A stretch of 64,000 nucleotides of DNA, taken from the NCBI RefSeq assembly GCF_988242995.1, contig NZ_OZ547043.1; one strand, given 5' to 3'. Under the pieces are notes generated by a model, which worked only from the letters and a program-made list of their open reading frames with translations, was not told the origin of the DNA and ran no database searches. A program made the position numbers and the translations under genes. This document shows positions 20,956 to 51,799 of the stretch, piece after piece (within the stretch, counting starts at the first letter, position 1; each line of letters begins with the position of its first letter).

Positions 20956-20982
20956 TTATCGGCAAGGAGGGGGGAAACTTTA
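20956..20982 (-). promoter_or_regulatory. sigma28 (FliA) class 3 promoter of the tar-tap-cheRBYZ operon
   Basis: minus strand TAAAGTTT-N11-GCCGATAA, exact consensus halves, about 25-30 nt upstream of tar start. Confidence 0.8.
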
Positions 20983-21012
20983 TTGCTGATGCCACCCGCC
21001 GCGAAATTGAAA

Positions 21013-21040
21013 TAAAAAACCCGATGCGCAGATCATCGGG
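21013..21040 (-). terminator. rho-independent terminator after cheW (end of motAB-cheAW operon)
   Basis: minus-strand stem cccgatg/catcggg followed by U-tract. Confidence 0.8.
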
Positions 21041-21068
21041 TTCATTTCAATTGAGGAAATCGGGAGAA

Positions 21069-21572
21069 TTACGCCACTTCTGACGCCGCGCTATCTAACA
21101 GCGCCATCTCTTCGCTGTTCAGCAGTTTTTCGATGTTCACCAGAATCAACATCCGGTCGCCCAGTGCGCCCAGTCCAGTGAGATATTCTGTTGAAAGCGT
21201 CACGGCAAATTCCGGTGCCGGACGAATTTGCTCCGCCGTCAATGAAAGCACGTCTGAGACGCCGTCAACCACGATGCCGACCACCCGCTGTCCGAGATTC
21301 AGGACGATAACTACCGTGTTGTCGTTATAGTCCACATCCACCTGGCTGAACTTAATTCGTAAGTCAACAATCGGCACAATAACGCCGCGCAGATTCGTGA
21401 CGCCTTTGATAAACGCTGGCGTGTTCGCAATCCGTGTTACCTGATCGTAGCCACGGATCTCCTGCACTTTCAGGATATCAATACCGTACTCTTCATCACC
21501 AAGGGTAAATACCAGAAATTCCTGGCCTGACGGCTCGCTGGCCAGCTTTGTTACATTCGTCATACCGGTCAT
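21069..21572 (-). CDS. cheW: chemotaxis coupling protein CheW (167 aa)
   Basis: ORF track; protein recalled as CheW. Confidence 0.96.
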
Positions 21573-21592
21573 ATTGTTACCTTTTTACTCAT

Positions 21593-23557
21593 TCAGGCGG
21601 CGGTGTTCGCCATACGTTGTTCGCGGTTTATCGCCTGCAAGGCGGAGACATCAACAATCAGTGCCACGCTGCCGTCGCCAAGAATGGTCGCAGCAGAAAT
21701 GCCGGGGACTTTGCGATAGTTACTTTCAAGGTTTTTAACCACAACCTGGTGTTGACCAATTAATTGATCCACCAGCAAGGCGTAGCGGCGACCGCCACTT
21801 TGTAAGATCACCACAATTCCCTGGGTGGCTTCGGTTTTCGCGCCCGCGACGTTGAACACTTTCCACAGTTCGACGATGGGCAGATATTCACCCCGCACTT
21901 CCAGCACCCGCTCGCCGCCGGCCAGTGGATGGAGATCGGCTTCACGGGGTTGCAGTGATTCCATAACAGCATTCAGCGGCAGAATGAAAACTTCATCCGC
22001 AACGCGTACGGACATGCCGTCGAGGATGGCCAGCGTCAGCGGCAGTAAAATGCGGATCGTAGTGCCAGTACCCTGCTTCGACTGGATTTCGACATGACCG
22101 CCCATCTCCTGGATATTACGTTTAACGACGTCCATGCCGACGCCGCGCCCGGAGACGTCGGTGACCTGCTCTGCCGTGGAGAAGCCAGGTGCAAATATCA
22201 GCATCGCGACTTCGTCGTCGCTCATGTTTTCGCTGACAGTCAAACCTTGCGAGGCCGCTTTTGCCAGAATTCGCTCACGGTTTAGCCCCGCCCCATCGTC
22301 GGTCACTTCAATGCAAATGTTGCCGCCCTGATGTTCGGCAGACAGAATTAAATTTCCGACGCTGTTTTTACCTGCGGCGAGCCGTTTTTCTGGCAGTTCA
22401 ATACCGTGATCGAGGCTATTGCGTACCAGGTGGGTCAGCGGGTCGATAATGCGTTCTATCAGGCTTTTGTCGAGTTCAGTAGAACTGCCCACCAGCGTCA
22501 GTTCTACCTGCTTGCCGAGTTTTCCCGCCAGATCACGCACCAGCCGGGGATAGCGACTAAAAACATATTCCATCGGCATCATGCGAATCGACATCACTGA
22601 TTCCTGCAAATCACGGGCGTTACGTTGTAACTGCCCCATGCTGGTTATCAAATCACCATGATTAACCGGGTCCAGTTCGCTGGAACGCTGGGCAAGCATG
22701 GACTGGGTGATAACCAGCTCGCCGACGAGGTTAATTAATTGATCAACCTTTTCTACCGCTACACGGATGCTGGTGGATTCATTGCTGCGCGTCGTTTTTT
22801 CCCGCTCCACGCGGCCGGTTGGCGCTTGTTCGGCTGCCAGTTTAAGCACTGGTGGGGTGGATATTTTTGGCGAGACTTCTACTGTTTCAAAGGTAATCTG
22901 ATCGGCTTCAATCACAAAACAGAGTACCGCTGTGATGTCATCTTCGGCGATGTCGCCCGGTAATATTGCCGAGAGCGAATCCGCCCCTTTCACCACGTCA
23001 GTTAACGTTGTCAGATGTCCCAGTTCTTCTTCCAGCAGGTCGACTTCCCCGGCCTTCAGGCGCGAAAGGATAATTCGTCGCGGCGACTGACTGCGACTCT
23101 GCTCATCTTGCGGTTCACTTTTGGCAACCACACTTAATCGGGTCACTGCGGATGGCGTTTCGCCTTTCGCTTCTAATGCCAGTTGACGCAAGGCCTGGCA
23201 GATATAATCGAAGCTGGCGGCATCCGGCTCTTGCGACTGTTTATAAGCGTCGAGCTGTTCTTGCATGATGTCCTTCGTTTCCAAAAACAGATTGATAATG
23301 TCGGTGTTGAGTTGCATCTCACCTCGTCTGGCTTCATCGAGCAGGTTTTCCATCAGATGCGTGGTTTCCTGCAAAACGCTGAAGCCAAAAGTTCCTGCCC
23401 CTCCTTTGATCGAGTGGGCAGCCCGAAAGATGGCATTCAATTGTTCGGCATCTGGCGCTTCCGGCTGCAAAACCAGCAAATGCTGCTCCATGTCAGCCAA
23501 CAGTTCGTCCGCTTCATCAAAAAATGTCTGATAAAAATCGCTTATATCCATGCTCAC
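21593..23557 (-). CDS. cheA: chemotaxis histidine kinase CheA (654 aa, GTG start; internal start at Met98 gives CheA-S)
   Basis: ORF track 21593..23611; GTG at 23555-23557 gives [11 protein letters not shown]-terminus; P1 phospho-His region (HSIKGGAG) present. Confidence 0.94.
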
Positions 23558-23561
23558 GCTG

Positions 23562-50077: not shown

Positions 50078-50108
50078 AAAAAACCCCGCCGGTGGCGGGG
50101 GTTGAGCG
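50078..50108 (-). terminator. rho-independent terminator of fliC
   Basis: minus strand ccccgccaccggcgggg followed by TTTTTT, 12 nt after fliC stop. Confidence 0.85.
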
Positions 50109-50119
50109 ATAAGTGTAAA

Positions 50120-51583
50120 TTAACGCAGCAGAGACAGTACGTTCTGCGTGGTCTGGTTAGCCTGCGCCAGAACAGAGGTACCCGCTTGTTGCAGGATCTG
50201 CGCACGAGACATGTTAGACACTTCGGTCGCGTAGTCAGCATCTTCGATACGGCTACGGGCAGAAGACAGGTTGTTTACGGTGTTGCCAAGGTTGGTGATA
50301 GCAGAGTCGAAACGGTTTTGTACTGCACCGAGGTCAGAACGCAGATTGTCAACTTTAGCCAATGCTTTGTCGATAGTTTCGAGCGGGTTGGTGGTAGATT
50401 GCAACGATTTTGCTGCATCTTCGTTTACCAGAATCGGGCTACCACCTTCTGATTTGCTCAGATACATGACTTTATTGTTACCAGAAGCAGTCTCCGTTAT
50501 CGTTTTACCATCTGCACTAACATCGTAAGTTGCACCGTTAACAACTAACGTGCTTCCTGTTTTCTTAGCTGCATTGAGATCAAGATCGGAAAGTGTGGCA
50601 GCCTTGTTATCAACTTTGGTTGTCGTATAAAGGCCAGCGCTATTTTTGTAAACTGTCTCACTCGTAATCAAAGAAGCTTTTTTGTCAGCATCTTTCACAG
50701 TAAATGTCACTGACTTACCATCAATTTCTGCAGAATATACACCATTCCCATTGCCATCCGCTGCAGTTGTTGTTGTGAATTCAACTCCATTAAACGTGAA
50801 TTTATCATTCTGTGCTTTATTCTTAGCCGCTGCTGCGAGTGCTGTAGCATCAATCCCTGTACCAGCTATGTTTGTGTCAGATTTAGTTGTCAGTGAACCA
50901 TCTGCTGCACTAACAAAAATATCATTCCCTGTAGTATCTTTAACAGCTCCGCTATCTACGTTAACAGTATAAGCATCACCGCCAACATCATAGTTATCAG
51001 TACCTGTCGCTTTAAATTTAGAAATCAGGTCACTGCCAGTTGCTTTCTGCGCGCCATCGATATTAAAACCGTCCAGGCCGAGAGTTTTCGCATCAATTTT
51101 TGCCAGATTGATAGTGATGGTTTCACCATCATTAGCACCAACCTGAATTTTCATTTCATTATTTTCAGCAAGGACTTTCACGCCGTTAAACTGAGTTTGC
51201 TCAGATACACGGTCAATTTCTTCCAGACGTTGAGTAATTTCAGCCTGGATAGAAGAAAGATCGCTGTCAGAGTTAGTACCGTTAGTTGCCTGAACAGTCA
51301 GTTCACGTACACGCTGCAGGTTGTTGTTAATTTCATTCAGCGCACCTTCAGTGGTCTGCGCAACAGAAATACCATCATTCGCGTTACGGGAAGCCTGAGT
51401 CAGACCTTTAATATTTGCTGTAAAACGGTTAGCAATCGCCTGACCTGCTGCGTCATCTTTAGCACTGTTAATACGCAGGCCAGAAGAGAGACGTTCAATG
51501 GCGGAGCTCAGAGAAGACTGAGATTTGTTCAGGTTATTCTGGGTCAACAGCGACAGGCTGTTTGTATTAATGACTTGTGCCAT
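50120..51583 (-). CDS. fliC: flagellin FliC (487 aa); conserved D0/D1 termini with variable central domain
   Basis: ORF track; N-terminus MAQVINTNSLSLLTQNNL and C-terminus ...QNVLSLLR typical of enterobacterial flagellin. Confidence 0.96.
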   Translation of the reverse strand: MAQVINTNSLSLLTQNNLNKSQSSLSSAIERLSSGLRINSAKDDAAGQAIANRFTANIKGLTQASRNANDGISVAQTTEGALNEINNNLQRVRELTVQATNGTNSDSDLSSIQAEITQRLEEIDRVSEQTQFNGVKVLAENNEMKIQVGANDGETITINLAKIDAKTLGLDGFNIDGAQKATGSDLISKFKATGTDNYDVGGDAYTVNVDSGAVKDTTGNDIFVSAADGSLTTKSDTNIAGTGIDATALAAAAKNKAQNDKFTFNGVEFTTTTAADGNGNGVYSAEIDGKSVTFTVKDADKKASLITSETVYKNSAGLYTTTKVDNKAATLSDLDLNAAKKTGSTLVVNGATYDVSADGKTITETASGNNKVMYLSKSEGGSPILVNEDAAKSLQSTTNPLETIDKALAKVDNLRSDLGAVQNRFDSAITNLGNTVNNLSSARSRIEDADYATEVSNMSRAQILQQAGTSVLAQANQTTQNVLSLLR

Positions 51584-51652
51584 GATCTTTTCCTTATCAA
51601 TTACAACTTGATGTTATTGGGCTGTTGCCCACGGTTTCTCACCGTACCCCTT

Positions 51653-51679
51653 GTATCGGCACCTGAATTTCGAACTTTA
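51653..51679 (-). promoter_or_regulatory. sigma28 class 3 promoter of fliC
   Basis: minus strand TAAAGTTC-N11-GCCGATAC about 70 nt upstream of fliC ATG. Confidence 0.75.
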
Positions 51680-51772
51680 GAAAATTTTAGTTTCTCTCCT
51701 GTTTTTTCTTAACGGCTGAAATATCCGTAATATACAACTCTACTCTGCGCATCATCTTCGTGAATCAACTAT

Positions 51773-51799
51773 TAAACTTTGCGCACAAATTGCCGATAA
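51773..51799 (+). promoter_or_regulatory. sigma28 promoter of fliDST
   Basis: TAAACTTT-N11-GCCGATAA about 40 nt upstream of fliD ATG. Confidence 0.75.

Follow-up and report, generated by a model that had tools for sequence, protein, structure and literature searches.

The 64,000-nucleotide stretch of DNA analyzed here (contig NZ_OZ547043.1 of NCBI RefSeq assembly GCF_988242995.1; hereafter the window) is a segment of the Escherichia coli chromosome that carries flhE-flhA-flhB, cheZYBR-tap-tar, cheWA-motBA, and flhCD at one end and continues through otsBA, araHGF, uvrYC, and sdiA to fliZ-fliA, fliC, fliDST, and fliE/F. Its identity with E. coli K-12 MG1655 amounted to 99.1-99.6%, except for a block encompassing fliC, the fliC-fliD intergenic region, and fliD (49373-53288), for which megablast against K-12 gave no match. 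This block was 100% identical to strains such as enterotoxigenic E. coli H10407 and Ch1, and the FliD protein encoded by it was 50% identical to the K-12 FliD protein. Every flagellar and chemotaxis open reading frame (ORF) in the window was full length, and FliA, FlhD, FlhC, Tar, MotA, and MotB were 100% identical to their K-12 counterparts. The elements of interest are three promoter motifs for FliA (sigma-28), the sigma factor for flagellar genes, upstream of tar, fliC, and fliD, which are almost certainly canonical late flagellar promoters of the E. coli chromosome.

The sigma-28 promoter of the tar-tap-cheRBYZ (meche) operon (20956-20982, minus strand) reads TAAAGTTT-N11-GCCGATAA and matches the consensus at 16/16 positions. 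Its -35 element TAAAGTTT (20975-20982) and its extended/core -10 element GCCGATAA (20956-20963) are separated by a spacer of 11 nt, and the tar ATG lies at position 20924. The fliC promoter (51653-51679, minus strand; TAAAGTTC-N11-GCCGATAC) matches at 14/16 positions and the class 3 promoter of fliDST (51773-51799, plus strand; TAAACTTT-N11-GCCGATAA) at 15/16 positions. The latter two are divergent and are located in the 254 bp (51584-51837) between the start codons of fliC (ATG at 51583, minus strand) and fliD (ATG at 51838, plus strand). Counted from the octamer end, the start codon follows after 32 nt in tar, 70 nt in fliC, and 39 nt in fliD. Each site is upstream of and co-oriented with the leading gene of an operon that depends on FliA, and the 5' untranslated region (5'UTR) is short. 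Positions, strands, sequences, and exact 11-nt spacers were all as given in a preliminary description of this DNA made from the sequence alone, and the coordinates bear out the divergent arrangement in the intergenic region that it proposed. Orientation and operon structure likewise agree with its assignment of the motifs as FliA promoters of tar-tap-cheRBYZ, fliC, and fliDST. Its qualification of these promoters as consensus-grade is appropriate for tar, which is exact, and too generous for fliC, the 14/16 match of which is no better than that of a motA promoter left off its list. Indeed, the three sites listed are real, but the motA/MotR promoter (25542-25568) and the autoregulatory promoter of fliA (49270-49296) were omitted.

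The published FliA consensus is TAAAGTTT-n11-GCCGATAA (PMC2859248). Four matches with at most two mismatches to TAAAGTTT-N11-GCCGATAA were found in the window versus 0.07 expected, and none of 100 shuffled sequences reached four. These were tar (no mismatch), fliD (one mismatch), fliC (two mismatches), and, as the fourth, the motA/MotR promoter. When three mismatches were allowed, six matches were found versus 0.70 expected (0/100 shuffles reached six), the two extra ones, both with three mismatches, being located antisense in otsA (28773-28799) and inside yecU upstream of yecF (43140-43166). Up to two mismatches, the consensus scan is highly specific for real FliA promoters here; at three, its yield already includes an unbound site (43140) beside a real but weak one (otsA). 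Further evidence came from a position weight matrix derived from the 52 motifs that Fitzgerald et al. 2014 list as bound by FliA (Table 2; PMC4183435), a table of which the correction (PMC4203485) alters just one footnote. The matrix comprised the -35 and -10 columns only, was based on 20 or 43 sites from chromatin immunoprecipitation sequencing (ChIP-seq), with the sites from the region of the window excluded, and was run over both strands (~128,000 positions), the best match in each of 300 random 64-kb windows serving as a control. The four top-ranking positions were tar (23.5-24.7 bits), fliD (21.3-22.4 bits), motA (19.6-21.3 bits), and fliC (18.0-19.7 bits), whereas the best match in a random window averaged 14.7 +/- 2 bits. 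The scores of tar or fliD were reached by 0-0.3% of the random windows (that of tar by none), the score of motA by 0.3-2.7%, and that of fliC by 1.3-6%. A full 28-column matrix that included the spacer, in which fliC ranked 13 (20-site version) or 7 (44-site version), was dropped as noisy, because the spacer columns of 20-44 sites contribute random score. Finally, all four matches are co-oriented with the leading gene of a known FliA-dependent operon and directly precede it; such positions make up about 0.8% of the window, and the probability that four out of four matches would fall there by accident would be about 4e-9. A chance origin of the motif matches is excluded.

The 28-mers of tar, motA, otsA, and fliA in the window are base-for-base identical to sites that are bound by FliA in K-12, with ChIP-seq FAT scores of 57, 101, 2, and 91, respectively, and the K-12 sites orthologous to those of fliC and fliD have FAT scores of 110 and 43 (PMC4183435). 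Deletion of fliA in K-12 lowers expression from 251 to 0 for tar, from 2319 to 11 for fliC, and from 302 to 1 for motA (PMC4183435), and the fold changes given by Zhao 2007 are -78.8x for fliC, -14x for motA, -13.2x for tar, and -9.9x for fliD. In the case of tar, the K-12 promoter has the same 28-mer (TAAAGTTTCCCCCCTCCTTGCCGATAAC), identically placed with respect to tar and surrounded by a region that is 99.6% identical; no difference was detectable, and it is the same promoter as that of the window. The K-12 tar promoter commonly serves as the example of the sigma-28 consensus, to which the site in the window corresponds base for base. The cheW-tar intergenic region also contains, on the strand opposite to tar, a match to Rfam C0465, a candidate small RNA (sRNA) family (20972-21049, plus strand; 111.6 bits), which overlaps both the tar -35 octamer and the cheW terminator.

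The fliC and fliDST promoters of K-12 (H48 allele) occupy orthologous positions and have the same 11-nt spacers as those of the window. The fliC octamers are TAAAGTTC/GCCGATAC in the window versus TAAAGGTT/GACGATAA in K-12; for fliD, the -35 element TAAACTTT is shared, whereas the -10 element is GCCGATAA in the window and ACCGATAA in K-12. Conserved between both are TAAAG/CGATA (fliC) and TAAACTTTGCGCA/CCGATAACCC (fliD), and the alleles of the window keep the 'GC' of the extended -10, which is absent from the K-12 alleles. Alignment with K-12 revealed the sigma-28 elements as conserved islands in a diverged intergenic region. In an alignment of this region from seven sequences, 27/32 octamer positions were invariant versus 84/200 of the other intergenic positions (Fisher p=5.5e-6); the spacers were invariant at 5/22 positions, yet their length was always 11 nt. 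For the fliD half alone, 15/16 octamer positions were invariant versus 45/142 of the remaining positions (p=1.6e-6). For the fliC half alone, the contrast was not significant (p=0.11), because the fliC 5'UTR itself is highly conserved. Compared with the flanking non-coding DNA, the octamers of fliC and fliD show purifying selection.

The 254-bp intergenic allele occurred at an identity of at least 99% in 860 of the 5,426 complete E. coli genomes searched (16%), among which were O26, O111:H8, and O104:H21 strains, and its divergence was too great for any match to other fliC-fliD intergenic alleles in this search. The exact fliC 27-mer, spacer included, was also found in Salmonella enterica subsp. 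arizonae and subsp. diarizonae, and in Citrobacter sedlakii and Citrobacter amalonaticus. In these taxa, the fliC 5'UTR is one mismatch away from that of the window and the fliD octamers are identical, whereas differences exist in the middle of the intergenic region and in the sequence of the fliD spacer. Among the loci returned by the genome scan with the fliC 27-mer, none bore the title S. enterica subsp. enterica or E. coli, and the representative genomes of both that were scanned apparently lack it. For this reason, identity of the fliC promoter of S. Typhimurium LT2 with the allele of the window is not claimed. One locus, titled 'MAG: Collinsella sp.' (L007; JAIJJM010000335.1), at first seemed to be a second case of the junction with IS200 found in the window between fliC and fliA; this 3.5-kb contig consists of E. 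coli fliA-fliC-fliD DNA (95.7-99.1% identical to the window), does not contain the IS200, and is evidently a contaminating contig in a metagenome bin.

With respect to transcription starts, the 5' end of the sRNA MotR (25535) is a mapped sigma-28 start, located at the seventh nucleotide after the -10 octamer of the motA promoter. In motile cells, differential RNA sequencing places the transcription start site 18-23 bp downstream of the motif centre for 38 of the 52 FliA sites, and 18-22 bp downstream for most classical flagellar promoters (10.1101/188474). In the structure of a sigma-28 open complex, GCCGATAA spans -15 to -8, with GC as the extended -10 (PMC12784957). By this spacing, transcription is predicted to start at about 20949 for tar (20946-20951), 51646 for fliC (51643-51647), and 51806 for fliD (51805-51809), which would result in 5'UTRs of ~60-64 nt for fliC and ~32 nt for fliD. 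Agreement of mapped starts with the elements thus holds for motA, through the MotR 5' end, and collectively for flagellar promoters, but does not extend to tar, fliC, and fliD one by one. Gene-level rows for tar, fliC, and fliD were not found in the supplements of Cho et al. 2014, nor were these gene names found in the SMRT-Cappable-seq supplements.

The direct observations consist of the sequence matches and their statistical excess, the identity to sites bound in K-12 (tar, motA, fliA, and otsA), and the selection on the fliC and fliD octamers, whereas actual occupancy by FliA and the positions of the starts in this strain are inferred. Once the hook-basal body is complete, export of FlgM, the anti-sigma factor, sets FliA free. 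Domain 4 of the sigma factor then reads the -35 octamer TAAAGTTT, and domains 2 and 3 read the composite -10 element GCCGATAA, made up of the 'GC' extended -10 and the CGATAA core. The FliA-RNA polymerase holoenzyme bridges the fixed 11-bp spacer and starts transcription 7-8 nt downstream of the octamer. In the window, this mechanism would drive tar-tap-cheRBYZ, motAB-cheAW (together with the sRNA MotR), and fliC. For fliDST and fliAZ, which also have FlhDC/sigma-70 class 2 promoters, the class 3 input from FliA would be secondary.

Several points weigh against the view that all three sites are canonical FliA promoters. Firstly, the quality of the match does not track occupancy, as the perfect tar site (16/16; FAT 57) is occupied less in K-12 than the 14/16 sites of fliC (FAT 110) and motA. 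Secondly, the fliC and fliD promoter alleles of the window differ from the K-12 alleles assayed. Thirdly, the comparably scoring motif at 43140 is unbound in K-12, so that motif matching alone yields false positives. Fourthly, the sigma-28 promoter of fliD contributes little in K-12 under the conditions tested. Lastly, Kim 2012 places the starts elsewhere, namely 408 nt upstream for tar (3 reads), 326 nt for fliC (2 reads), and 79 nt for fliD (3 reads). These starts are treated as uninformative rather than contradictory, because the flagellar genes were barely expressed in those cultures. The decision to set them aside also took into account that, as pointed out by Fitzgerald 2014, neither the fliA nor the fliC promoter was picked up in the FliA ChIP-chip experiment of Cho et al. 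2014, a study with some of the same authors as Kim 2012.

The point concerning fliD leads to the alternative that survives best. The preliminary description had counted fliD among the class 3 promoters, which is right as far as the presence of a sigma-28 promoter is concerned, but the operon is not purely class 3, its control being dual (class 2/3) in K-12. In that strain, fliD expression decreases from 633 to only 356 upon deletion of fliA (PMC4183435), compared with a decrease to 3 upon deletion of flhD. Also, FliA dependence was not detectable with fliD and fliA reporter fusions (10.1101/188474), in the case of fliD because a strong FlhDC/sigma-70 promoter is located just upstream. Judged from these K-12 data, fliDST and fliAZ appear to be dual operons, of which the FlhDC-activated sigma-70 promoter dominates under laboratory conditions, whereas tar, motA, and fliC appear to be strict class 3 promoters. 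In the centre of the fliC-fliD intergenic region (~51706-51730), two blocks, TTTTT.CTTA and GAAATA, are near-invariant, both between K-12 and the H11-type allele and in Citrobacter and Salmonella, and make a candidate for the FlhDC box of the class 2 promoter of fliD. The modest effect of the fliA deletion, the unresponsive fliD-lacZ fusion, and this plausible FlhDC box would all fit a fliD motif that is vestigial or minor, fliDST being in effect a class 2 operon (FlhDC/sigma-70) in this strain. Such a reading is nevertheless unlikely, as FliA occupies the K-12 fliD site (FAT 43) and as overexpression of fliA in a flhD deletion strain brings fliD back to the wild-type level or above. Furthermore, the fliD octamers are nearly invariant over the seven sequences even though the spacer varies, and the -10 element GCCGATAA of the window is better than ACCGATAA of K-12. 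A sigma-28 promoter that acts beside a dominant class 2 promoter remains the preferred interpretation of the fliD site.

Between fliC and fliA, the window contains an insertion sequence IS200 of 711 bp (49367-50077), with tnpA on the minus strand. Compared with the insertion-free strain Ch1, with which it was delimited by alignment, its boundary is ambiguous by ~2 T residues and a target-site duplication is absent. The element is 99.2% identical to annotated IS200/IS605 tnpA copies, contains a match to Rfam STnc490 (49944-50067; 146 bits), and has terminator hairpins on both sides (50084-50100 and 49376-49394). Its length of ~0.7 kb, single tnpA gene, structured 5' RNA, terminal hairpins, and lack of a duplication are those of a member of the IS200/IS605 family. 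It adjoins fliC, as described before, beginning 42 bp past the stop codon, right after the T-tract of the fliC intrinsic terminator (50078-50100, minus strand; CCCCGCCACCGGCGGGG followed by T6). This terminator, which was detected in a terminator scan, is intact, abuts the left end of IS200, and is identical to that of K-12, which is also the 3' end of the sRNA FliX.

The element thus separates the fliC terminator from the fliA upstream region, and does not come between the tar, fliC, or fliD promoters and their genes. Because it lies upstream of fliA, the fliA promoter is the element at risk. The fliAZ promoter region (49270-49296, minus strand) combines an exact -10 element GCCGATAA (49270-49277) with a non-consensus -35 element TGCAGAAA, and this sigma-28 element overlaps the FlhDC-dependent sigma-70 class 2 promoter. 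In K-12, the class 2 start of fliA is located 30 nt upstream of the GTG start codon (Kim 2012 supplement), which maps to position 49274 of the window. The native stretch of 122 bp from the fliC terminator to the fliA GTG is unbroken and its proximal 106 bp are identical to K-12; the centre of the K-12 FlhDC ChIP peak maps to ~49308, 59 bp within the retained DNA. Read-through into fliA is unlikely, because terminator hairpins flank IS200 on both sides. The preliminary description concluded from its three promoters that the class 3 circuitry is intact in spite of IS200. This holds in so far as the fliA promoter and the flagellar ORFs of the window are physically intact; three motifs cannot show intactness, and flgM and other parts of the circuit and regulon lie outside the window. 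It is through the examination of the fliA promoter, its upstream region, and the ORFs, rather than through the three motifs, that the cis and trans flagellar parts visible in the window are found to be physically intact. The insertion beside the fliA upstream region would be neutral.

A circuit that is altered despite intact cis elements has some arguments in its favor. Inserted upstream of fliA at a distance of ~93 bp from the class 2 start, IS200 could alter FlhDC-dependent expression of fliA and change or abolish sigma-28 output, through DNA topology, lost upstream contacts, or read-in/read-out transcription. The element abuts the fliA regulatory region, and an IS200 at the fliC-fliA site was found in 0/5,426 complete RefSeq E. 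coli genomes (best coverage 83%, corresponding to the IS alone). In addition, IS insertions near flagellar regulators can change motility, for example the IS1 upstream of flhD in K-12. However, none of the 122 bp that lead from the fliC terminator to the fliA GTG has been lost, the FlhDC peak centre lies inside the retained DNA, and the flanking hairpins oppose transcription into fliA, which makes an altered circuit improbable. Moreover, the analogous intergenic region of S. Typhimurium, between fliB and fliA, contains an IS200 that serves as a serovar marker, and strains with this insertion are ordinarily motile. The S. Typhimurium copy likewise directly precedes the fliA regulatory region and follows the transcription unit on the flagellin side, but it concerns another species, its neighbour is fliB instead of fliC, and it represents an independent event. 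Furthermore, it is fixed in the serovar, whereas none of the 5,426 complete E. coli genomes searched has the copy of the window. That IS200 is not neutral but tunes FlhDC-dependent fliA expression, and with it all sigma-28 promoters of the window, in convergence with the S. Typhimurium insertion, is more doubtful still; such a convergence could perhaps come from IS200 targeting terminator hairpins next to the fliA locus.

The weakest alternative, chance resemblance of the motifs, in particular the 14/16 fliC site, with true promoters elsewhere, hardly deserves consideration: although the fliC score in the full 28-column matrix (10-16 bits) falls in the same range as that of the best random match, the similarly scoring 43140 motif is unbound in vivo, and the Kim 2012 table puts the tar and fliC starts elsewhere (on 2-3 reads from glucose-grown cells with low flagellar expression), the four matches with at most two mismatches are all correctly oriented and each directly precedes a class 3 operon, the tar site is identical to one bound in vivo, the fliC 27-mer is identical over three genera, and the fliC core elements persist in the diverged K-12 allele at a position bound with a FAT score of 110.

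Besides the three promoters discussed above, the window contains other FliA sites. The sigma-28 promoter of motAB-cheAW and MotR (25542-25568, minus strand; TAAACTTT-N11-GCCGATAT; 14/16) is located inside the flhC coding sequence. The MotR sRNA, which corresponds to the motA 5'UTR (25441-25535, minus strand), is over its 95 nt 100% identical to K-12 RefSeq b4828, and its transcription depends on sigma-28 (PMC10578931). The weak FliA binding site antisense in otsA (28773-28799, plus strand) reads TGAAATTG-N11-GCCGATAA; in K-12, this site has a FAT score of 2 and is without regulated RNA (PMC4183435). The motif inside yecU (43140-43166, plus strand; TAACGTAT-N11-GCCGATAT), 134 bp upstream of yecF, ranked fifth with the weight matrix. 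It was rejected as a promoter, as it is identical in K-12 yet not among the 52 FliA ChIP-seq sites, and it represents a false positive of the motif search or else binding under the detection limit. The bare -10 octamer GCCGATAA occurred 11 times in the window versus 2.2 expected (0/100 shuffles reached 11), including positions 11014, 18265, 19966, 33439, 46888, 48207, and 57380; 4/11 are known FliA sites. Three intragenic copies on the sense strand (tap, tar, and araF) represent in-frame Ala-Asp-Lys/Asn codons, and two of these carriers, tap and tar, are paralogues, while four antisense copies are located in flhE, dcyD, fliZ, and yedE. Many cryptic FliA sites were considered as the reason for this ~5-fold excess; coding constraints account for part of it.

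Some additional differences with K-12 were found near the flagellar genes. The flhD-uspC intergenic region (26440-27208) does not contain the IS1 that K-12 MG1655 has upstream of flhDC, and flhDC here has the uninterrupted wild-type configuration. FliX, a sigma-28-dependent sRNA of 195 nt from the K-12 fliC 3'UTR, is not conserved; when the K-12 sequence (L003, 39913-40107) was compared with positions 50078-50119 of the window, just the 23-nt terminator matched. The native fliC-fliA intergenic region is 164 bp long in the allele of the window versus 320 bp in K-12. Nucleotides 40-140 of FliX match positions 2661-2760 of the window at 86%, where Rfam ES036 is reported as well, and the additional sequence in K-12 resembles a repeat of the REP type. 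Strains with the allele of the window (~16% of the complete genomes) may be without FliX as K-12 defines it. Finally, the sRNA MicL is present at full length (6674-6981, minus strand; Rfam RF02654, 370 bits).

The sigma-28 promoters of tar, fliC, and fliD are already known biology. As textbook promoters, they matter little past the quality of the annotation. In the H11/H8/H21-type allele, the -10 elements differ from, and are more consensus-like than, those of the K-12 allele that has been used in all experiments, and the IS200 between fliC and fliA leaves both flanking transcription units physically intact.

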